The notes beneath the pieces were generated by a model. It was given only the letters and a program-made list of their open reading frames with translations. It had not been told where the DNA came from and did not search any database. The position numbers were made by a program, and so were the translations under genes. DNA of 64,000 nucleotides from Verrucomicrobiia bacterium (GTDB lineage Bacteria > Verrucomicrobiota > Verrucomicrobiia > Palsa-1439), in contig JBEKBH010000006.1 in the NCBI GenBank assembly GCA_050015495.1, positions 67,661-131,660 on the forward strand. Reading direction: 5' to 3'. Shown in pieces: positions 21,616-45,326 of this stretch; positions within the stretch are counted from its first letter, which is position 1, and every line of letters starts with the position of its first letter.

Positions 21616-22558
21616 AACGGTTCCCTCATTGGAGGCGACGTCGGCGGCGGAGCAACACCCGGTGTCACTCGACCGCCCGGGATGGCCGAAGAATCTTGTC
21701 TGGGCGACGATCGTTCTCGTGGCCTGTTTCAGCGTGCCGTTGTTCCGTCTGGTGTGGTTCGCGGCAACCAGTGAGTTGTATTCCCAGTGCTTGTTGGTGC
21801 CGTTCGTGAGCGCGTACCTGGCGTGGTTGAACCGGGGCAACGTGTGGGGCTCTTCCGGGCCGAACCGGCGATTCGCCGTGTTCGCATGGTCCGCCGGGTC
21901 AGTTTTGCTGGCCGGATACTGGCTGGCCATTTGGTCCCGTTGGCCCATCACCAATCAGGATGGCCTGGCATGGACAATCTCGGCCTTCGTCTGCCTCTTT
22001 TTCGGCATGTGCGGCTGGTTCGCCGGCCGGGAAAGACTCCGCACCATGCGGTTTCCCTTGTGTTTCCTGGTGTTCATGGTGCCGTTTCCGATGGTGGTAC
22101 ACAATTGGCTGGAAGGCTTTCTCCAGCGAGGATCGGCGCTGACGGCCTATGGGTTCTTTCAGTTATTCGGGACGCCGGTCTTTTACAGCAACTTGAATTT
22201 CCAATTGCCGGGCTTTGCGTTGCAGGTGGCGCCGGAATGCAGCGGCATCCATTCCAGCCTGGTGTTGTTCCTGACCAGTCTGGTCGCGGGCCACCTTTTC
22301 TTGCGATCGCCATGGAAGGGGGGAATCCTGGCGCTGGCCGTGCTTCCACTCGGACTGTTGCGAAACGGGTTTCGCATTTTCGTGATCGGCCAACTATGCA
22401 TGCATATCGGGCCCCAGATGATCCATTCCGTGTTTCACCGGGACGGCGGCCCCGTCTTTTTTGCGCTGTCCCTGGTGCCGTTCTTTCTTCTCTTGCTTCT
22501 CCTGCGGCGATCCGAACAGGCGCCGGCGGGATCGACAGACCAACAACGGAGTTCTTGA
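21599..22558 (+). CDS. Exosortase (EpsH/Xrt family transmembrane transpeptidase)
   Basis: Multi-pass membrane protein with the conserved exosortase motifs QVAPECSGIHSSLVL and LRNGFRIFVIGQ. Start uncertain (TTG 21599 or GTG 21662). Confidence 0.85.
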   Translation: MDSNIKTVPSLEATSAAEQHPVSLDRPGWPKNLVWATIVLVACFSVPLFRLVWFAATSELYSQCLLVPFVSAYLAWLNRGNVWGSSGPNRRFAVFAWSAGSVLLAGYWLAIWSRWPITNQDGLAWTISAFVCLFFGMCGWFAGRERLRTMRFPLCFLVFMVPFPMVVHNWLEGFLQRGSALTAYGFFQLFGTPVFYSNLNFQLPGFALQVAPECSGIHSSLVLFLTSLVAGHLFLRSPWKGGILALAVLPLGLLRNGFRIFVIGQLCMHIGPQMIHSVFHRDGGPVFFALSLVPFFLLLLLLRRSEQAPAGSTDQQRSS

Positions 22559-33235: not shown

Positions 33236-33479
33236 CGAGCAAAACAACTGGGCTTTGCGAGTGGGACAGATCGCAAGTTGCGGGTCAAACGTGACCCGGT
33301 TGTGATATCTGGAATATGGCCGCAATTCAGTTTCGGGAGACTCCGGCGGGCCAGTGCTTGCCGCACCGTCATTCCCCCTGCAAGGGAGAGTGTAGTAAGC
33401 TATCTGCGGCCCGACTGACCGTGAACCGAACAGAAAGGCGCGGCGGGACACGATTCCGACCGTGAACCAGCGATAGACC

Positions 33480-35594
33480 ATGGGCTTGGCCATCACACTG
33501 GCCCTCACCAGCGCAATTCTTGCGTTTGGGATGGGAGTGACTGTTGCCGTCCGGGAGCGAATCTCCCTGGCATCCTGGACGTTCTTCGTCGGGATGACCG
33601 TATTGGCCGCCGAAGGCTTGCTGGCCGGACTGGCCGCGCAGGCGACCGTGCCGGACGAAATGGTCTACTGGGAGCAATGGAAACTTGTCGCAACATCCGT
33701 TCTTCCAGGCATCTGGCTGTTGTTCAGTGTGAGCTACTCGCGGGGTGATGTTCGAGAGACCCTGGTGAAATGGTGGTGGCTGATCGTCGGAGCGTTTGTC
33801 CTGCCGATCGGCCTTGCGGTGTTGTTTCGCGGGAACCTGATTACGGTCGCACGTCAGGCGTCCCCGCCGGACCATTGGATGCTCCATCTGGGCTGGCCGG
33901 GCGTGGCGTTGAACCTTCTGTTCTTGCTGGGCTGCATCCTGGTCCTGGCGAACATCGAGCGCACCCTCCGCGCGTCCGTGGGAACGATGCGGTGGCGCAT
34001 CAAGTTCATGATCGTCGGCTTGGGGATCCTGTTCGCCGTTCGGGCGTACACGAGCAGCCAGAATCTGTTGTTTGGGATGGTGGATCTTTCCTGGGGAAGC
34101 GTGGACTCGGGAGCGCTCCTGCTGGCGGCTCTGCTGATCTTGCGTTCGCTGTTGCGGGCCGGACATTTCGACGTCAGCGTCTATCCGTCACAGTCGGTCG
34201 TGTACAATTCACTGACCGTGCTGTTGGCGGGGATCTACCTGTTTCTGGTCGGGGTGTTCGCCAGGGTGGTCACGTTTCTTGGCGGCGACGCGACGTTTAC
34301 CGTCAAGGCGTTCGTGATCCTGCTCGCGCTGGTCTTGCTGACGGTCCTGTTGTTGTCCGAGCGGGTGCGGCTGCTTACCAAGCAGTTTGTCAGCCGTCAC
34401 CTTCAACGGCCGTTGCATGACTATCGTCTGGTCTGGCGAAAGTTCACCGAGGGCACCGCCTCGCGCGTCGACCAGACGGAACTGTGCCGGGCGACGGTCA
34501 AACTCATCGCGGAAATCTTCCAGGCGCTCTCCGTGACCATCTGGCTCGTCGACGACACCAAAGAGCGCCTGACGTTTGCGGCCTCCACGTCGTTGTCGGA
34601 TACCGCGGGCACGAATCTCAGCCCGCACGGCGCGGAGGTGGTGGAAGTCGTTCGTGGCTTGCTCGAGCAGACGATGCCGGTGGACATCGACACATCGAAG
34701 GAACGGTGGGCCGCGCTGCTGAGGCAGTGGCATCCAGACGAATTTCGCAAGGGAGGGAACCGCATTGCCGTGCCGATGATCACCAACGGAGAACTGCTCG
34801 GGCTGATCACGCTGGGTGATCGCGTTGGCGGGGTTCCCTTCTCGCAACAGGATTTTGATTTGCTCAAGTGCATGGGCGACCAGGCAGCCGCCAGCCTGCG
34901 CAATGTCGAGTTGTCACAGAAGCTTCTCCAGGCAAGGGAACTCGAAGCGTTCCAGACCATGTCGGTATTTTTCATCCACGACCTGAAGAACACCGCCTCG
35001 ACGCTCAACCTGATGCTGCGCAACCTGCCCGTCCACTTTGACAAGCCCGCCTTTCGTGAAGACACGTTGCGCGGGATTTCCAAGAGCGTGGATCACATCA
35101 ATCAACTGATCGAGCGGTTGAGCCTGTTGCGTCACGAATTGGAAATGCAGCCGACGGAAACGGACCTGAACGAGGTGGTCTCCCAGGCCGTCGGCGGCTG
35201 GGCCAAAACCGGCGACGTTGATCTGGTACAAGACCTGCATCCGCTGCCAAGGTTGTCTCTGGATCGGGAGCAAATACTCAAAGTGGTGACAAATCTGGTA
35301 CTGAACGCGACGCAAGCGGTTTCCGGCAAGGGCCGGGTGGGCATCGAGACGACCCACCGAAACGGCTGGGTTGTGCTCGCGGTGACGGATAACGGCTGTG
35401 GCATGAGCGCGGAGTTCCGGAATCGATCACTGTTTCGCCCGTTCCAGACCACCAAGAAACAGGGCTTGGGCATCGGCGTGTTCCAGAGCAAGATGATCGT
35501 GGAGGCGCACGGAGGAAGGATCGAGGTGGAAAGTGAACTGGGCAAGGGTACGACGTTTCGTGTATTGTTGCCCGTCCGAAGGCCAGGTGAATGA
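33480..35594 (+). CDS. prsK: PEP-CTERM system sensor histidine kinase PrsK
   Basis: About 8 N-terminal TM helices, GAF-like region, HisKA (FIHDLKNTAST) and HATPase_c (DNGCGM...GLGIGVF) motifs. Confidence 0.85.
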   Translation: MGLAITLALTSAILAFGMGVTVAVRERISLASWTFFVGMTVLAAEGLLAGLAAQATVPDEMVYWEQWKLVATSVLPGIWLLFSVSYSRGDVRETLVKWWWLIVGAFVLPIGLAVLFRGNLITVARQASPPDHWMLHLGWPGVALNLLFLLGCILVLANIERTLRASVGTMRWRIKFMIVGLGILFAVRAYTSSQNLLFGMVDLSWGSVDSGALLLAALLILRSLLRAGHFDVSVYPSQSVVYNSLTVLLAGIYLFLVGVFARVVTFLGGDATFTVKAFVILLALVLLTVLLLSERVRLLTKQFVSRHLQRPLHDYRLVWRKFTEGTASRVDQTELCRATVKLIAEIFQALSVTIWLVDDTKERLTFAASTSLSDTAGTNLSPHGAEVVEVVRGLLEQTMPVDIDTSKERWAALLRQWHPDEFRKGGNRIAVPMITNGELLGLITLGDRVGGVPFSQQDFDLLKCMGDQAAASLRNVELSQKLLQARELEAFQTMSVFFIHDLKNTASTLNLMLRNLPVHFDKPAFREDTLRGISKSVDHINQLIERLSLLRHELEMQPTETDLNEVVSQAVGGWAKTGDVDLVQDLHPLPRLSLDREQILKVVTNLVLNATQAVSGKGRVGIETTHRNGWVVLAVTDNGCGMSAEFRNRSLFRPFQTTKKQGLGIGVFQSKMIVEAHGGRIEVESELGKGTTFRVLLPVRRPGE

Positions 35595-36958
35595 ATCCAA
35601 AACTACTGATTGTTGACGACGACGAAGAAATCCGCACCCAGATGAAGTGGGCGCTGGCGCAGGATTACGAGGTGTTGCTGGCGGAGGACCGGGCCAGCGC
35701 GGTCGAATGTTTCAAGTTCGATCGACCATCGGTGGTGTTGATGGATCTGGGCCTGCCGCCCCAACCGAACAGTCCTGACGAGGGGTTGGCGGCGATGGCG
35801 GAGTTGGTCGCGCTGGATCGGTTGGTCAAGGTCGTGGTCATCACCGGACAGGAAGAGAAAGAGGTGGCGCTGAATGCGGTGGGGGCCGGGGCCTACGATT
35901 TTCTCTGCAAGCCGGTGGACGCGGAGGAACTGAAGCTTCTGCTGAAGCGTTGTTTCCACGTCGCGCGGCTGGAGCGGGAGTACCGCGAGATGCAGCAACA
36001 ACTTCAGGGGGATGCTTTCGAGAGCATGCTGGGCACGAGCCCCTCGATGCAGACCGCGTTCGCCTCGATTCGCAAGGTGGCCGTGACGGAAGCCCCTGTC
36101 CTGATTCTGGGGGAAAGCGGAACGGGAAAAGAAATGGCCGCGATGGCGATCCACCGGCGGAGCGCGCGAAGGGACGGTCCCTTTATCGCGATCAATTGCA
36201 GCGCGATCCCGGAAACGCTCCTGGAGAGCGAACTATTCGGGCATGAAAAGGGCGCGTTTACCGGCGCGCACATGCAACGGAAGGGGCGGATCGAAAGCGC
36301 CAGCGGCGGCACGCTGTTTTTGGACGAGATTGGAGAGATCCCATTGCCGTTGCAGGTGAAGTTGCTTCGATTTTTGCAGGAACAACGCATTGAACGGGTC
36401 GGTGGCCGGCAGGAGATCCGGGTGGATGCGCGCATTACGGCCGCGACCAACTCCGATCTCAAGAAGGGGATGGCCAACGGCAGCTTTCGGGAAGACCTGT
36501 ACTATCGGTTGGCCGTGGTGCAGATGACGTTGCCGCCGCTTCGTGACCGGGAAGGGGATATTCGCCTGCTGGCGCAGGCGTTCCTGCAGCGATTTATGCG
36601 GGAGATCGGAAAACAGGGCCTGGCCTTCGATCGCGAAGCGGTGTCGGCGATGCGTGGTCACATGTGGCCGGGCAACGTGCGGGAATTGGAAAACCGCGTC
36701 AAACGAGCGGTGATTATGGCCGAGGGCAAGTGGTTGACAGTACAAGACCTCGAGCTGGCCGAATCCAAGGATTCCACACGCGCCACCACATTAAAGGAAG
36801 CCCGGGAGAACCTGGAGCGAGAGATGATTCTTCAGGGCTTGCGGAAACATTCCTGGAAGATCGCCGCGGCGGCCGCCGAACTCGATGTGAGCCGCCCCAC
36901 GTTGTACGAGCTGATGGAGAAGCTGAAGATCCAACGGCCCGCGCAGGAGCCGCAGTAA
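35591..36958 (+). CDS. prsR: PEP-CTERM system sigma-54-dependent response regulator PrsR (NtrC family)
   Basis: Receiver domain (LIVDDDEEIR..D), AAA+ sigma-54 activation domain (GESGTGKE, GAFTGA, ESELFGHEKGAFTGA) and C-terminal HTH. ATGA overlap with prsK. Confidence 0.9.
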   Translation: MNPKLLIVDDDEEIRTQMKWALAQDYEVLLAEDRASAVECFKFDRPSVVLMDLGLPPQPNSPDEGLAAMAELVALDRLVKVVVITGQEEKEVALNAVGAGAYDFLCKPVDAEELKLLLKRCFHVARLEREYREMQQQLQGDAFESMLGTSPSMQTAFASIRKVAVTEAPVLILGESGTGKEMAAMAIHRRSARRDGPFIAINCSAIPETLLESELFGHEKGAFTGAHMQRKGRIESASGGTLFLDEIGEIPLPLQVKLLRFLQEQRIERVGGRQEIRVDARITAATNSDLKKGMANGSFREDLYYRLAVVQMTLPPLRDREGDIRLLAQAFLQRFMREIGKQGLAFDREAVSAMRGHMWPGNVRELENRVKRAVIMAEGKWLTVQDLELAESKDSTRATTLKEARENLEREMILQGLRKHSWKIAAAAAELDVSRPTLYELMEKLKIQRPAQEPQ

Positions 36959-36961
36959 TAC

Positions 36962-37046
36962 CGCCCGCAGTGTCCCCCCACCCGTCATCACGGCCGGCAA
37001 CCGCCGCCGTGAGACATCGGAAGCATCCCGCCTCCGGCCGCCGCTC
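36962..37046. repeat. Copy 1 of an ~80-bp near-identical direct repeat containing a 7-bp-stem hairpin (TCACGGC-N11-GCCGTGA)
   Basis: ccgcagtgtccc..cccgtcatcacggccggcaaccgccgccgtgagacatcggaagcatcccgcctccggccgccgct is found again at 39707..39787. Confidence 0.7.
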
Positions 37047-37205
37047 GTCTTGTGGAACCGTAACATCCCCGAACTCGGTCTGCGTGACTCATCGATCTTG
37101 AACCAACCCCGGAACCCCTGAATTGGTTGGACAGGAGGATCGGCTTGGTGATATTTTTCCAATGGTGAGGGGCATGTAGTCAGGACGCTCGTCTGCCCAG
37201 TCTCG

Positions 37206-37238
37206 GGTTCGAGTCGGTGCGAGAATGGATTCGAACCA
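37206..37238 (-). other. tRNA 3'-end-like fragment (canonical T-arm GGTTCGAATCC plus acceptor-like 3' strand) with no matching 5' half. Possible remnant att site.
   Basis: The minus strand reads ..catGGTTCGAATCCattctcgcacc. No complementary acceptor 5' strand was found within 90 nt. Confidence 0.3.
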
Positions 37239-37263
37239 TGGTTCCGTCATCACGGGCGTGTTC

Positions 37264-37277
37264 GGTACCGAACGCGT
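37264..37277. promoter_or_regulatory. 14-bp perfect palindrome GTTCGGTACCGAAC about 115 bp upstream of the LRR gene start. Candidate dimeric regulator binding site.
   Basis: Exact reverse-complement symmetry seen in the sequence. Confidence 0.3.
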
Positions 37278-37389
37278 CCCGAAGTTCTGTAACCTTTTAG
37301 TGAAGGCGAACGTGCGCCGCCAGCGCTCGCTACCCAGTTATCCATCCACGAAGTCCAACAGCCTGCCTCGCTGCGCGGAGAACACCATC

Positions 37390-39666
37390 ATGAAAACATG
37401 GACCCCGAACACGATGGCCGGGCATTTCAGAACTGCCTACACGGCGAAGCTGCTGCCACTGCTGCTGCTCCTCTTGCTTCCACCGGCCGCCGTACAAGCC
37501 CAATACTCTTACAAAACCAACAATAACACGATCACCATTGTACAACCCTCCTGTGGCACCGGTGCTCTGACCATCCCAAGCACAATTAATGACCTGCCGG
37601 TCACCAGCATCGGGGAGGATGCGTTGTACGGCTGCACCGTCTTGACCAGCGTCACGATTCCAGCCAGCGTTACCAGCATCGGGGACGGGGCGTTTTCCGG
37701 CTGCTTCAGGCTGACTGCGATCATGGTGGACACAAACAATCTCATCTATAGCAGCGTGGATGGGGTGTTGTTCGACCAGAGCCAGACCACACTTATTCAA
37801 TACCCGGGAGGCCAAGCTGGCAGCTACTCGATTCCCTCCAGCGTCACCAGGATCGAGGACGATGCGTTCTATGGCTGCGCCAGCCTGACCAATGTCACGA
37901 TTGGGACCAGCGTCACCAACATTGGGAACTATGCGTTCGCGGACTGCACCAGCCTGACTGGCGTGACGATCCCCAACGGCGTCACTAGCATCGGGGACGA
38001 TGCGTTCTTCAACTGCGCCAGCCTGGCGAACGTTACGATTCCCGCCAGCGTCGTTTACATTGGGTACAATGCGTTCGCGAACTGCACCAACCTGACAGCA
38101 GTGTATTTCCAAGGGAACGCCCCCGACCTTGATGGTTGTTGTGTGTTCTCAACTGACACCGGCACGTATGTGGGCTTTGACCCGGCGATGGTCTATTACC
38201 TGCCGGGGACCACGGGCTGGGGCACAACGTTTGGCGGTCTACCGACTGTTGACATGGCCTTCACTTACACGACCGCTAACGGTACGGCCACCATTACCGG
38301 GTACTTATGTCCCACCAACGGCACTGCGTTGACCATCCCCAGCGTGCTCGGTGGCTTGCCGGTCACCAGCATCGGGGACGATGCGTTCTATGGGTGCGCC
38401 AGCCTGACCAACGTCACGATCCCCGCCAGCGTCACCAACATTGGGGACAATGCGTTCGCGAACTGCACCGACCTGACAGCAATCGATTTCCAAGGGAACG
38501 CCCCCAGCATCGGGACGAATTCGACGGTGTTCTCCGGTGACACCAATGCGATGGTCTATTACATGCCGAGGACCACGGGCTGGGGCACAACGTTTGGCGG
38601 GCTGCCGACTGTTGATGTCGCCTTCACCTACACGACCACTAACGGTACGATCACCATCACCGGCTACACCGGTCCCGGTGGGGCGTTGACCATCCCCAGC
38701 GCGCTCGGCGGTTTGCCGGTCACCAGCATTGGGAGCGATGCGTTCTACTATACTGGCCTGACGGGCGTCACGATTCCCGCCAGCGTTACCAGCATCGCGA
38801 GCAATGCGTTCGCGGATTGCAGAAGCCTGATCAGCGTCACCATCCCCAACAGCGTCACCAGCATTGGGGACGGTGCGTTCGCGGATTGCGGAAGCCTGAT
38901 CAGCATCTTGTTCCTGGGGAACGCTCCAAGCGTTGGTTCGGATGTCTTCGGTGGTGACAGTGCGACCGCCGTTTACTTGCCGGAGGCCACAGGTTTTGGC
39001 GCAATGTTTGGCGGTTTGCCGACGGCCGCAGAGTGGTCGTCGCCGCAGGATGAGGTGAAACTCACGGAGGCTTGCCAGGATAAACTCTTTTGCGATGACC
39101 TAGGCAATGTTGACGTTGATCCGACCGGCTCGTTCACCGTCCACGCCGTTTTGTTCACCAGTGCCGGACTTAACGCCACCAACCTCAATCCGAACACAGT
39201 GGTCGGAATCATTATCGGCGATTGGGCGTACCACGGTACATTGGGTGACAATCCCAAGTACAAGGACATGGCCACTAAGGCGACGTTGCGGCTGACTTAC
39301 CAATATTATCCTTCTTCACTTAGCGATGATCCCATGACGAAGTCCGCCGGTGCCGTGACCCTCGGTTTTGGCAAGACGAACACGACGTTGGCGATCACTT
39401 CCAGGGCCGGTGACGCCATTAACAGGGACGGAGAGGATAACACCATTCAGAACTTCATTGCTGCCGATACTCTGACTGGCCAAGCCGCGCCCGGCAAATC
39501 AGTAGTCGTCAGCAATACGATCAGTGCGATCATTATCATTGACGACAACGCGGAGATGTTTACCAACATTGTCATAACCGGCACCGTTGCCGAGAAACTC
39601 TCGAAACGTACACGCGGTGGCCAGTGGTTCTTGGACACGGTGAAGATCAACGGCACGTCGCCGTAG
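37390..39666 (+). CDS. Cell-surface leucine-rich-repeat protein (BspA-type LRR_5 repeats) with signal peptide
   Basis: Signal peptide KLLPLLLLLLLPPAAVQA. Many repeats of the pattern ..IP.SVTSIGD.AF..C..LT.VTIP.. . Confidence 0.75.
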   Translation: MKTWTPNTMAGHFRTAYTAKLLPLLLLLLLPPAAVQAQYSYKTNNNTITIVQPSCGTGALTIPSTINDLPVTSIGEDALYGCTVLTSVTIPASVTSIGDGAFSGCFRLTAIMVDTNNLIYSSVDGVLFDQSQTTLIQYPGGQAGSYSIPSSVTRIEDDAFYGCASLTNVTIGTSVTNIGNYAFADCTSLTGVTIPNGVTSIGDDAFFNCASLANVTIPASVVYIGYNAFANCTNLTAVYFQGNAPDLDGCCVFSTDTGTYVGFDPAMVYYLPGTTGWGTTFGGLPTVDMAFTYTTANGTATITGYLCPTNGTALTIPSVLGGLPVTSIGDDAFYGCASLTNVTIPASVTNIGDNAFANCTDLTAIDFQGNAPSIGTNSTVFSGDTNAMVYYMPRTTGWGTTFGGLPTVDVAFTYTTTNGTITITGYTGPGGALTIPSALGGLPVTSIGSDAFYYTGLTGVTIPASVTSIASNAFADCRSLISVTIPNSVTSIGDGAFADCGSLISILFLGNAPSVGSDVFGGDSATAVYLPEATGFGAMFGGLPTAAEWSSPQDEVKLTEACQDKLFCDDLGNVDVDPTGSFTVHAVLFTSAGLNATNLNPNTVVGIIIGDWAYHGTLGDNPKYKDMATKATLRLTYQYYPSSLSDDPMTKSAGAVTLGFGKTNTTLAITSRAGDAINRDGEDNTIQNFIAADTLTGQAAPGKSVVVSNTISAIIIIDDNAEMFTNIVITGTVAEKLSKRTRGGQWFLDTVKINGTSP

Positions 39667-39706
39667 CGAGAATCCAGGCGTACTCCGTCAGCCAAATACA
39701 TACGAT

Positions 39707-39787
39707 CCGCAGTGTCCCACCCGTCATCACGGCCGGCAACCGCCGCCGTGAGACATCGGAAGCATCCCGCCTCCGGCCGCCGCTAGA
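39707..39787. repeat. Copy 2 of the ~80-bp direct repeat (see 36962..37046). It overlaps the stop codon of the minus-strand export gene.
   Basis: See copy 1. Confidence 0.7.
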
Positions 39788-40460
39788 ACCAGGAGAATTT
39801 CTCCGGCACGTACACGATGTCCGAGGGCTTCAGGTAGAAGGGCGTGCTCTGCTTGGCCTCGAGGGCCTCTTTCAGGTTCAGCGTGTAGTTCTTCGTCCCG
39901 TCCTTCTCGTTGCGGACCACTCGGACATGACCGAGGTTGGCTTTCGTGTAGTCGAAGCCGCCCGCTTCCATGATGGCTTCCAGCGCGGTGATCGGGTGGT
40001 CGGACATGATCTTGCCCGGCCGGATCACAGCCCCGGTCACGAAAACGGGAAACGAGGAAGACGTCACGGTCACCGTGACTTCCTTGGTGACCAACTGGGA
40101 CGAGTAGAGTTTGAGAATCTCTTTCTCCAAATCGGCCGGCGTCAGCCCGGCGGCGACGACTTCCCCGACCATGGACAAGACAATCTTGCCGTCTCTTCGG
40201 ATCTGCTGCGAGTCATTGAGATTCGGGGCGCCGGGAAAGGTGATCTTCAACACGTCGCCCTCGCGCAGGATGATCGCATTCGACTGTTCGGCGGCGGTAT
40301 CGACGGGAGCGTTTGTCTGGGTGGTCTGACAGCCGGCCATGGCGGTCAGGATTGCGACCACCAGGGTCGCGAGCATCGTTCGCGAACGGCCGCCAACGAA
40401 CACGCCTCTGTTGTTTGGCAAGCGGTCGAGATCAGTTCGAATCGTTGAACCCTTGGTCAT
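39783..40460 (-). CDS. Polysaccharide export protein (Wza/GumB-like periplasmic lipoprotein). Resembles the PEP-CTERM-system-associated export protein.
   Basis: Lipobox LTAMAGCQ. Poly_export-type region ILREGDVLKITF...RRDGKIVLSMVGEVVAAGLTPADLEKEI and SLBB-like C-terminus. Alternative start M29 at 40376. Confidence 0.8.
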   Translation of the reverse strand: MTKGSTIRTDLDRLPNNRGVFVGGRSRTMLATLVVAILTAMAGCQTTQTNAPVDTAAEQSNAIILREGDVLKITFPGAPNLNDSQQIRRDGKIVLSMVGEVVAAGLTPADLEKEILKLYSSQLVTKEVTVTVTSSSFPVFVTGAVIRPGKIMSDHPITALEAIMEAGGFDYTKANLGHVRVVRNEKDGTKNYTLNLKEALEAKQSTPFYLKPSDIVYVPEKFSWF

Positions 40461-40503: not shown

Positions 40504-40520
40504 GTGTGGCAAGTCCCGTG
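40504..40520 (+). promoter_or_regulatory. Weak candidate sigma-54 promoter (TGGCAA-N5-GTGCC, GG-N10-GC) about 350 bp upstream of the PEP-CTERM protein gene
   Basis: GG-N10-GC spacing is present. The -12 element and the distance to the start codon are imperfect. Confidence 0.25.
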
Positions 40521-40875
40521 CCTCTCATGCGCGGGTCATTCTATTCGTGTGCGGTCACGGCGACAACATTAAAGCCGAGCTTCCGGGCACGCATCGTAGT
40601 ACAGCGAGAGGCTGTACAGCGGGTCAACCCAAGCGTAATCCAACGGTCAGCATTGTGTAAATTGGCGTCGGAATACCTTACACTTATTGGCAAACTCTCG
40701 GAATCTCACGAACGAGAGTGTGATTTATAATAGCGTTATTACCAAGCACTTGGCGTGGTAACCCAGCCTGAATTTTGTCCTCGCGGCATGGGTAGTGCTA
40801 GGTAAGTGATTGATTCTGCAACGGGTGCCGTCGTTTGGTTCGACGGCAAGCAGAAGGGGAAGAAAGGGTATAGGG

Positions 40876-44168: not shown

Positions 44169-45326
44169 TCAGATGGCGGCGGGTTTTCCACCCGGCGCGC
44201 AGACGCGGCGATACAACGCTTCGTAGCGGGGCACGATGGCCTCCGCGGAAAATAGCTCGCGGGCGCGGTGTTGCGCCGCGCGCCCGAGCGTGGACCGGCG
44301 GACCGGGTCGTTGATCAGACTCTCGACCGCACGGGCAAGGACATCGGCATCGCCCGAGGCTACCAGCAGTCCAGACACGCCGTCTTCGACCACCTCCGGA
44401 ATGCCGCCGGCGCGCCGGGCGACACTGGGACAGGCAAAACACATCGCCTCGAGAATGCTCAGACAAAAGCTTTCCGATTCAGAAGTGAACAATCCGAGGT
44501 CAGCCGCCTGCAGATAATCTTCGATGTCATTGACCCGTTCGCGTACGACCACCCGATCCTCAATGCCCAGCCGGCGCACGTCGGCGGCGAATGGCGCGAA
44601 ATCCCCGCCGGCGAGAATAACGAGTTTGAACGCGGCGCGGGGACGGATGCGCGCGACGGTTTCGAGCAGTAGATCGATGCGTTTCAGCGGACGAAGATTC
44701 GAGGAATGCAGCACAACCACTTCATCGCGCACACCCAGGTCGCGCCGCACCTCTTCCCGCGTGCGCCGAGTCGGGCGAGGCGCAAAGAAACTGTGAATCA
44801 CTTCGATGGGACGATCCACCGCGAGCAACTGTTGGGTCTCCTGTTGCAGAAATGCGGACACAGTCGTAATGGCATCCGAGCGGGCGAGAGCGTGGCGGAT
44901 CGCCGGCCCATAGCCCGGATCACGGCCCAGCAACGTGGTGTCCGTGCCGTGCAGCGTCGTGACGACCCGCGGCTGTTGCTCTGGTGGAAGCATCGCCCGC
45001 GCAAGGATGGCCGCGGTCGCGTGGGGCACGGCGTAGTGAACATGCAGCACATCGAGCCGGTGGTCGCGGCTTACCTCCGCCATCTTGACGGAAAGCGGCA
45101 GCGTGTAGTCGGGGTATTTGAACAAATCGTAATCGTTGATGATCACCGGGTGGAAATGAATCCGTGGCGCGTCCACCGGCAGACGGAACGGACGTTCGTA
45201 GCTGATGAAATGCACCTCGTGGCCGCGACGCGCCAACTCCTCGCCCAATGCGGTGGCGAGGATGCCGCTCCCTCCCACCGAGGGATAACAGGTGATGCCG
45301 ATCTTCAGTGGGCGCCCGGTCGTCAT
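44169..45326 (-). CDS. bshA: N-acetyl-alpha-D-glucosaminyl L-malate synthase BshA (GT4)
   Basis: N-terminal LKIGITCYPSVGGSGILATALGEELARRGHEVHFIS closely matches the BshA signature. C-terminal GT1 EX7E region. Confidence 0.7.
   Translation of the reverse strand: MTTGRPLKIGITCYPSVGGSGILATALGEELARRGHEVHFISYERPFRLPVDAPRIHFHPVIINDYDLFKYPDYTLPLSVKMAEVSRDHRLDVLHVHYAVPHATAAILARAMLPPEQQPRVVTTLHGTDTTLLGRDPGYGPAIRHALARSDAITTVSAFLQQETQQLLAVDRPIEVIHSFFAPRPTRRTREEVRRDLGVRDEVVVLHSSNLRPLKRIDLLLETVARIRPRAAFKLVILAGGDFAPFAADVRRLGIEDRVVVRERVNDIEDYLQAADLGLFTSESESFCLSILEAMCFACPSVARRAGGIPEVVEDGVSGLLVASGDADVLARAVESLINDPVRRSTLGRAAQHRARELFSAEAIVPRYEALYRRVCAPGGKPAAI

Follow-up and report, generated by a model that had tools for sequence, protein, structure and literature searches.

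In a 64,000-nt stretch of a metagenome-assembled genome (MAG) from a soil or peat lineage of Verrucomicrobiia, analyzed here as a whole and called the window, a gene for a BspA-type leucine-rich repeat (LRR) secreted protein separates two convergent genes, the regulator gene prsR and a wza-like polysaccharide export gene, that are direct neighbors in related species. The LRR gene is part of a lineage-specific insert of about 2.66 kb bracketed by long direct repeats. Judged from alignments with the relatives, this repeat is the native prsR-wza spacer, which is present once in the relatives and twice in the window, around the 2.66-kb segment. The event was recent, the insert carries a 3′ fragment of a tRNA-Gln(UUG) gene, and neither recombinase genes among the window open reading frames (ORFs) scanned nor terminal inverted repeats on the insert were found. 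We consider it probable that a foreign piece of 2.66 kb was inserted into the native spacer and that the whole spacer was duplicated in situ, in an illegitimate, one-off event; this estimate takes in the well-supported parts of the reading along with the rest.

Two copies of one sequence flank the LRR gene

The original prediction, made from the sequence of the window alone, had described an ~80-bp repeat with a 7-bp-stem hairpin on both sides of the LRR gene, and this was confirmed. An exact 69-nt direct repeat occupies 36977-37045 and 39716-39784; at ≤3 mismatches it has these two matches in the window and no third, compared to none in 100 shuffles of the window. When a 3-nt indel in a C-run is allowed (CCC in copy 2 against CCCCCC), identity reaches 36965-37045 (81 nt) and 39707-39784 (78 nt), and the copies are then identical across 78 nt save for this indel. 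Both copies had been placed right after a stop codon, which is correct for copy 1, beginning at the prsR stop (TAA, 36956-36958), whereas copy 2 begins 34-41 nt past the LRR stop (39664-39666) and reaches at its other end into the stop codon (39783-39785) of the wza-like gene on the minus strand. The features of the site are as follows.

35591-36958, plus strand: prsR, PEP-CTERM-box sigma-54 response regulator, left flank (TIGR02915, E=1e-179; Response_reg, Sigma54_activat and HTH_8 in Pfam)
36958-37045, no strand: spacer copy 1 (left), strictly identical from 36965, homologous to the single spacer of the close relatives L002-L009 and L063
36988-37012, no strand: hairpin of copy 1, 7-bp stem TCACGGC/GCCGTGA, 11-nt loop with an inner 3-bp stem
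37046-39699, plus strand: lineage-specific insert of ~2.66 kb (leader, LRR gene and 33-40 nt of 3′ flank), absent from all relatives
37390-39666, plus strand: BspA-type LRR secreted protein gene, 758 aa, NCBI MGD1018645.1 (PF13306 LRR_5, E=2e-79)
39700-39784, no strand: spacer copy 2 (right), strictly identical from 39707, last 2 nt within the wza stop codon
39727-39751, no strand: hairpin of copy 2, same 7-bp stem, located 3′ of both the LRR gene (plus strand) and the wza-like gene (minus strand)
39783-40460, minus strand: wza-like polysaccharide export gene (Poly_export and SLBB), right flank (PF02563, PF22461)

Three other assemblies (JGI 3300041415, Logan SRR33405628, and ENA ERZ27249977) have the same structure with 100% identity. 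In the Logan assembly, built from a further run, the contig breaks off 30 nt into copy 2, precisely the point at which a true repeat compels a k=31 de Bruijn graph to branch. Since four independent assemblies agree and the k-mer graph breaks exactly at the repeat, the structure is real and not an assembly artefact.

The repeat is the native prsR-wza spacer

For comparison, a PrsR scan with one genome per species yielded 80 loci, and the related DNA compared amounts to 1.28 Mb; the closest set consists of nine species-level Verrucomicrobiia MAGs (L002-L009 and L063; PrsR identity 85-95%). In all nine, prsR and wza are convergent and adjacent, with a spacer of 57-88 bp. The LRR gene is absent from between them in 9/9, and no trace of it was found within 10 kb in any relative. 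The same prsR-wza adjacency was seen at ~25 more distant Verrucomicrobiota loci. The synteny check that had been proposed thus found adjacent genes, a single spacer and no LRR gene, and the claim that the LRR cassette was inserted between prsR and wza is upheld by the empty site of nine close relatives and many distant loci.

Position by position, the repeat aligns with the relatives' spacer (which reads TAATACGGTCCGCAGTCCCACCCGTCATCACGGCCGGCAGCCGCCCCGTGAGACACAGGAAGTATCCCGCCTTAGCCTGCCGCTAG in L002, for example), and in whole-locus BLAST each relative's spacer matches both window copies, the doubly aligned stretch beginning at the final nucleotide of the prsR stop and ending at the second nucleotide of the wza stop. 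It is because a single orthologous spacer aligns to both copies that we regard the repeat as host spacer. The relatives' spacers align to 36960-37045 and also to 39700-39784, beyond the strictly identical core, which sets the duplicated unit at ~85-88 nt.

By PrsK identity, the window clusters with L003, L006, and L063 (90-91%), within the empty-site clade. As the window is nested among lineages with an empty site, the insertion is a gain in its own lineage and not a loss elsewhere. Orthologous spacers differ by 10-20% between the relative species; since the two window copies are identical while these spacers diverge to that extent, the event was recent and the second copy came from the host's own spacer.

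The spacer has a GC content of 74%, and its hairpin stem is retained in 7-8 of the nine relatives, with little covariation. The dinucleotide TA is confined to both edges of the duplication (36956, 36959, and 39784) and is missing from the interior of the spacer. The alternative that the repeat is terminator-like was not sustained: the hairpin has no U-tract, T-runs are absent on both strands, and a terminator scan was empty in both copies. Nor did we find the dispersed copies that a repetitive extragenic palindromic (REP) element would have: there are no further copies in the window, the 1.28 Mb of related DNA contain nothing spacer-like besides the orthologous prsR-wza spacers, and the exact 25-mer of the hairpin had 0 matches in the genome and metagenome contig collections searched (185,579 species genomes and 241 million metagenome records).

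At 12 other Verrucomicrobiota loci (L012, L015, L018, L019, L021, L022, L033, L037, L044, L055, L067, and L071), prsR and the wza-like gene are kept apart by unrelated genes spanning 1-6 kb. No flanking repeats were found around these inserts. The presence of unrelated genes at this place in other lineages makes the prsR-wza junction a variable spot across the phylum.

The insert codes for a single protein and carries no recombinase

The LRR protein is the only product encoded by the insert. The GC content of the insert is 57.4%, compared to 60% for the window, with a host-like GC3; no part of the window deviates more in its tetranucleotide profile, a measure that is inflated by the internal LRR repeats. 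No integrase, transposase, or other recombinase domain was found by Pfam in the 38 of 45 candidate window ORFs that the scan took in, and the insert has no terminal inverted repeats (end score 7, compared to 7.0 in shuffles). With neither a transposase nor terminal inverted repeats, and with a duplication of 85-88 bp rather than 2-14 bp, it does not qualify as a transposon or insertion sequence. The original prediction put forward site-specific or repeat-mediated recombination. A reading of the repeats as element ends or att cores that came in with the cassette is not supported: the repeats are the host's own duplicated spacer, and there is neither an integrase nor a transposase in the ORFs scanned.

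The leader of the insert (37046-37389, 344 nt) contains three short features:

37128-37157, plus strand: weak sigma-70-like promoter match TGGACA-16/18-GATATT/TATTTT, not exceeding shuffle expectation
37218-37240, minus strand: att-type remnant from the 3′ end of a tRNA-Gln(UUG) gene (T-arm and 3′ acceptor strand, 1 nt deleted)
37260-37273, no strand: 14-bp perfect palindrome GTTCGGTACCGAAC

The palindrome had been noted before at 37264-37277; it is present a few positions away from there and is at chance level, as the window has 5 such palindromes compared to 5.6 expected. The sigma-70-like match overlaps the motif GTGATATTTTTCCAAT (37148-37163), which is common to a cassette at another Verrucomicrobia locus, L058. 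In the 1.28 Mb searched on both strands, the AT-rich sequence GTGATATTTT(T)CCAAT occurs without mismatch only at window 37148-37163 and at L058:14410-14424, both times shortly past the left flanking repeat of a recombinase-less cassette and 5′ of its first gene. This motif may be a promoter, may match by chance, or may have another explanation. No -24/-12 match to a sigma-54 promoter was found in the leader, and there is no sign of a structured RNA in it (fold z-scores of -0.12 and -1.13, and nothing relevant in Rfam). A candidate third, partial copy of the spacer in the leader (37244-37258, 14/15 nt) was rejected as being at chance level, given that an equal score was reached by 53 of 2000 shuffles and by 42 of 704 other windows.

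A fragment of tRNA-Gln(UUG) lies inside the insert

A tRNA T-arm remnant in the leader had been read as the mark of a tRNA-borne integration site. The fragment itself is genuine. The sequence GGTTCGAATCC runs on the minus strand from 37237 to 37227, its sole occurrence in the 64 kb, and the minus strand from 37240 to 37218 matches 23 of 24 positions of genuine tRNA-Gln(UUG) 3′ ends, with a 16/16 match to the T-arm of the tRNA-Gln(UUG) of L062, a distant Verrucomicrobiota MAG. A metagenome scan with the pattern CATGGTTCGAATCCATN{0,1}TCTCGCA, which allows one optional base in the window sequence, returned six metagenome contigs, and all six matches fall within tRNA-Gln(UUG) genes called by ARAGORN, which end in ...CATGGTTCGAATCCATGTCTCGCAGC(CA). 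The part of the claim that concerns an integration site did not hold, as the fragment is a single copy that lies 171 nt inside the insert, in the opposite orientation to the LRR gene and at neither junction.

The tRNA scan suggested for the remnant was negative, with 0 tRNA genes in the window by ARAGORN and none by Rfam. A decayed full-length tRNA was also considered and rejected, since the sequence upstream of the T-arm is not tRNA-like: 2394 of 5000 shuffles reached an equal local alignment. An alignment of this upstream part anchored on the T-arm was borderline (51 of 5000 shuffles).

The extent of the fragment, from the T-arm to the 3′ end and short of the variable region, is that of the att core of T-loop-targeting integrases. 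Williams is said to have distinguished, in 2002, a T-loop sublocation class among the islands and prophages that target tRNA genes. The attP core of phage Ms6, for instance, comprises 26 bp from the T-loop to the 3′ end of tRNA-Ala (PMC1762012). From this extent we infer that the fragment is a passenger: the insert would have come out of an element that targets tRNA-Gln, from its border or attachment region, where the LRR gene was the neighboring cargo.

In L062 (11499-13653), a tRNA-Gln(UUG) gene is located directly 3′ of prsR and is followed by an AT-rich stretch and then by an Eco29kI restriction endonuclease and C5-methylase gene pair. This arrangement looks like an island at tRNA-Gln beside the same regulator gene.

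The LRR protein and its origin

The product of the inserted gene consists of a signal peptide, three LRR_5 modules, and a C-terminal all-beta domain. The LRR_5 match is far above its cutoff (PF13306, E=2.1e-79, 264 bits compared to 27.7) and covers four stretches. An in-frame ATG upstream, at 37225, underlies the 813-aa call in JGI and ENA. The three tandem-like modules (window 37564-38930) are spaced at 357-414 nt and share up to 87-91% DNA identity, which implies a recent internal duplication. The protein ends in a separate domain:

39022-39663, plus strand: C-terminal domain of 214 aa, a rare uncharacterised family with 37 hits in 1.84 billion representatives

Members of this family are always found at the extreme C-terminus of secreted proteins with varied N-termini, or alone behind a signal peptide. 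The domain has no match in Pfam and no fold match in the PDB; of five AlphaFold2 (AF2) models, one reached a pLDDT of 87, and only that one was confident. The tail LDTVKI(K/N)GxS is conserved in homologues from unrelated loci. This bears on a resemblance that we noticed between the end of prsR and the 3′-terminal 37 nt of the LRR gene (score 17 compared to 10.3 ± 1.4; 3 of 2000 codon shuffles), for which a duplication reaching into the prsR 3′ end was considered and rejected: because the tail is conserved in the homologues, the end of the LRR gene is native, and the likeness to prsR is a coincidence or at most microhomology.

The exact protein was found only in this population. The next-best LRR homologues share 48-52% identity over at most 70% of the length, none above ~52% was found in 5.8 billion clusters, and the best relatives of the C-terminal domain reach 57-59%. 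The donor search gave no relative in viral contigs and no DNA match in plasmids or phages, and two loci with homologues (L085 and L086) have neither flanking repeats nor any similarity to the leader. The source was an unsampled genome, probably another Verrucomicrobia-like one.

How the insertion arose

We picture the event in the following way. The lineage would have acquired 2.66 kb of outside DNA, made up of the leader and the BspA-type LRR gene and carrying the tRNA-Gln(UUG) 3′ fragment from the border of a tRNA-Gln-targeting element or island. In a single event, this piece would have entered the spacer, and the stretch from the prsR stop to the wza stop would have been duplicated, giving spacer-insert-spacer. 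Two routes to such a product can be envisaged. Staggered single-strand breaks might have occurred at both edges of the GC-rich, hairpin-forming spacer and been followed by fill-in, or replication might have switched template out of the spacer and back. The breaks would have been placed at the TA steps of the stop codons, at both duplication edges. It is the break-and-fill or template-switch step, along with the island origin of the tRNA fragment, that we infer. In situ duplication is favored because the copies are identical and derive from a spacer of the host that is poorly conserved, because no recombinase was found in the ORFs scanned, and because none of the nine relatives carries the element.

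Several points weigh against this account. To our knowledge, no bacterial mechanism routinely makes target duplications of 85 bp, and staggered nicks 85 nt apart are a conjecture. Both edges fall within 2 nt of stop codons, which is improbable for random breaks. The position of the edges can be ascribed to the TA steps, as these occur only there, but this argument is post hoc, and internal TA steps are present in the spacers of several relatives. Finally, the left edge of copy 2 reads ATACGAT instead of ATACCGC and the C-run differs, the other 69 nt being identical; such clustered differences would fit two spacer alleles and a crossover as well as they fit junction-associated errors.

The main rival draws on these same differences and is, in our estimate, a serious if unlikely competitor. 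It holds that integration was driven by homology and that the incoming molecule already carried the spacer next to the LRR cassette, either as a circle for which one crossover in the 85-bp spacer sufficed (Campbell-type insertion-duplication) or as a linear fragment anchored by spacer and wza homology, with its other end joined illegitimately. A host segment on either side of an insert is the exact product of a single crossover, and the spacer, single in the empty site, does form a pair of direct repeats around the insert. All differences between the copies (three substitutions and the 3-nt indel) lie in the first 20 nt of copy 2 and are followed by 69 identical nt, a clustering expected of a donor/recipient hybrid with the crossover inside the spacer, and the copy 2 edge ATACGAT resembles the ATACGGT or ATACCGT of the relatives. 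There is also a precedent in homology-facilitated illegitimate recombination, a process documented in natural transformation and proposed elsewhere among bacteria to account for the displacement of cassettes (PMC5361080; PMC3240628). However, this explanation needs a prior molecule in which the cassette abutted the lineage's own spacer, so that the problem of origin is only shifted back, and no donor was found among the nine related species or in the protein, contig, viral, plasmid, and phage collections searched. Moreover, 85 bp is short for a RecA-dependent crossover, and it is left unexplained that the homology carried should be exactly the intergenic spacer. An integrase acting in trans, which we regard as improbable, would make the insert a miniature integrative element, the hairpin-bearing spacer serving as attB for a tyrosine or serine integrase and the repeats being attL and attR. 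Direct repeats of 50-100 bp or more are typical of islands at gene 3′ ends, the tRNA-Gln att-type core in the insert speaks of an integrase-linked past (PMC1762012), and the L058 locus holds a comparable ParDE cassette between 100-bp, 96%-identical repeats of an argG 3′ end. Yet neither the insert nor any of the window ORFs scanned encodes an integrase, 0/9 relatives carry the element, and the tRNA fragment is internal and unrelated to the junctions; with a spacer that diverges by 10-20% between close species, the identity of the copies indicates that the host's own spacer was copied and not imported.

The remaining explanations are less probable still. That the LRR gene and both spacer copies are ancestral and were lost from the relatives by recombination between the repeats is very unlikely: such recombination would recreate the arrangement of the relatives precisely, but the nested position of the window lineage among empty-site lineages, with outgroups that are empty as well, would require several independent losses, old repeats should have diverged as the orthologous spacers have, and the relatives keep no trace of the gene within 10 kb. 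We give hardly any credence to the repeat being a member of a dispersed REP-like or terminator-like family whose bracketing of the gene is incidental. A GC-rich hairpin downstream of genes would suit such a family, but the two copies in 64 kb, the restriction to orthologous spacers in the related DNA, the lack of any exact hairpin match in the genome and metagenome collections, and the coincidence of the repeat with exactly the whole spacer of the relatives do not. An assembly or binning artefact, with a chimeric join at a short repeat, would be conceivable for a MAG as such and is scarcely credible here, as both flanks return to the syntenic locus, the JGI, ENA, and NCBI assemblies are 100% identical, the Logan unitig breaks where a repeat of 78-81 bp forces a branch at k=31, and the repeat is shorter than typical reads. 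A different kind of proposal is that an undescribed mechanism attacks both edges, at the stop-codon TA steps, of hairpin spacers between convergent genes and inserts DNA there, duplicating the whole spacer much as Cas1-Cas2 does with a CRISPR repeat. We would put this forward as a long shot; if it held, it would be a recurrent route of gene gain in Verrucomicrobia, and the recombinase-less L058 cassette, with its ~100-bp repeats and GTGATATTTT(T)CCAAT, would be a hint of it.

Comparison with known systems

In situ duplication of the spacer, which we prefer, belongs to a known kind of event, the insertion flanked by a duplicated target; what is unusual, in this single case, is the length and the exactness of the duplication. 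Staggered cleavage duplicates 2-14 bp of target in transposons, about 14-15 bp in casposons, and the whole CRISPR repeat in insertion by Cas1-Cas2. The present case resembles these systems in that host sequence was duplicated in situ on both sides of the insert, and it resembles the duplication of the CRISPR repeat in that a complete unit able to form a hairpin was copied from edge to edge. It differs in the length of 85-88 bp, in the absence of a transposase, casposase, Cas1, and terminal inverted repeats, and in being a single event with no array.

As in Campbell-type insertion-duplication, a host segment forms a direct repeat around the insert, and recombination between the repeats would restore the site. 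In contrast to it, a circular donor with a copy of the spacer is not known here, the duplication measures no more than 85-88 bp and is exactly an intergenic spacer, and the case is a natural one, from an uncultured Verrucomicrobiia lineage.

With the islands and prophages of the T-loop class, the insert shares the 24-nt block of tRNA-Gln(UUG) T-arm and acceptor strand that stops short of the variable region. Unlike theirs, this block is single and internal (171 nt from the insert end), it adjoins no intact tRNA gene and has no second copy at the far end, the element lacks an integrase, and the flanking repeats are not derived from a tRNA.

The only other long flanking-repeat structure around a cassette in the 1.28 Mb of related DNA is that of L058 (14282-15077), where a ParD-like/ParE pair (ParE_toxin, E=4e-19) lies between 100-nt direct repeats, 96% identical, of the 3′ end of the argininosuccinate synthase gene (argG). 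Like the window insert, it is a small recombinase-less Verrucomicrobia insert between ~100-bp direct repeats of host DNA from where a gene has its 3′ end, with GTGATATTTT(T)CCAAT near its left end. It differs in that its repeats lie within a coding 3′ end and have the appearance of an imported att-type copy at 96% identity, whereas those of the window are identical, bar the C-run indel, and equal to a whole intergenic spacer.

The surrounding locus

The insert is located in a 64-kb exopolysaccharide/exosortase locus with prsT, prsK, EpsH, and many glycosyltransferase genes. Matches above cutoff to TIGR02916 (399 bits, cutoff 300), TIGR02917 (393 bits, cutoff 312), and TIGR02915 (PrsR, 598 bits, cutoff 503) identify it as a PEP-CTERM/XrtA locus, and Exosortase_EpsH is found at 21662-22558. 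The wza-like protein matches TIGR03027 under its cutoff. Upstream of its gene, we found one regulatory element:

40509-40523, minus strand: sigma-54 -24/-12-like element AGGCACGGGACTTGC, 1 mismatch to TGGCAC-N5-TTGC

The element AGGCACGGGACTTGC is located 49-63 nt 5′ of the wza-like start codon and is kept at -63 to -65 in seven of the nine close relatives. This conservation suggests that the export gene may be driven by the neighboring sigma-54 activator PrsR. The LRR gene has no such element. It also has no PEP-CTERM sorting signal by NCBIfam, ending in ...VKINGTSP within the conserved globular domain, and for both reasons we regard it as a guest in the locus and not as a member of the regulon.

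Two segments of close relatives (L003 and also L002, L004, L006-L009, and L063) are absent from the window. One (L003:6570-7770, compared to window 33325-33359) comprises 1.2 kb with a 245-aa ORF between prsT and prsK. The other (L003:14648-17333, compared to window 43018/43019) comprises 2.7 kb between a 227-aa ORF and an M50 peptidase gene and encodes an 882-aa secreted repeat protein with a weak DUF3466 match. Neither flanking repeats nor scars were found at these two places in the window. These segments, without counterpart in the window, indicate that the locus gains and loses secreted-protein genes at several points. In addition, the JGI contig (L001), otherwise identical to the window, has 22 mismatches within its last 300 nt (window 44670-44954, L001:10675-10959), in a GT4 glycosyltransferase gene, which points to strain variation or a chimeric contig end.

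Consequences of the insertion

After the insertion, prsR still has its hairpin in copy 1, wza retains one on the other strand, and the LRR gene gains a hairpin 61 nt past its stop, in copy 2. The near-identical copies make the insert excisable by homologous recombination, with exact restoration of the ancestral site.

The locus thus offers a well-resolved natural case of the entry of a surface-protein gene into a conserved polysaccharide/exosortase (PEP-CTERM) locus, in which the empty site is known from nine related species and both junctions can be read to the base. The duplication is an order of magnitude longer than those made by known bacterial transposable elements and equals a complete intergenic spacer. 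If the pattern were found to recur, it would point to an unrecognised route of insertion between convergent genes. As a single, anecdotal case, it mainly illustrates that repeats on either side of an insert may be something other than element ends or REP sequences and that a captured piece of an island can bring a tRNA att fragment along as a passenger.

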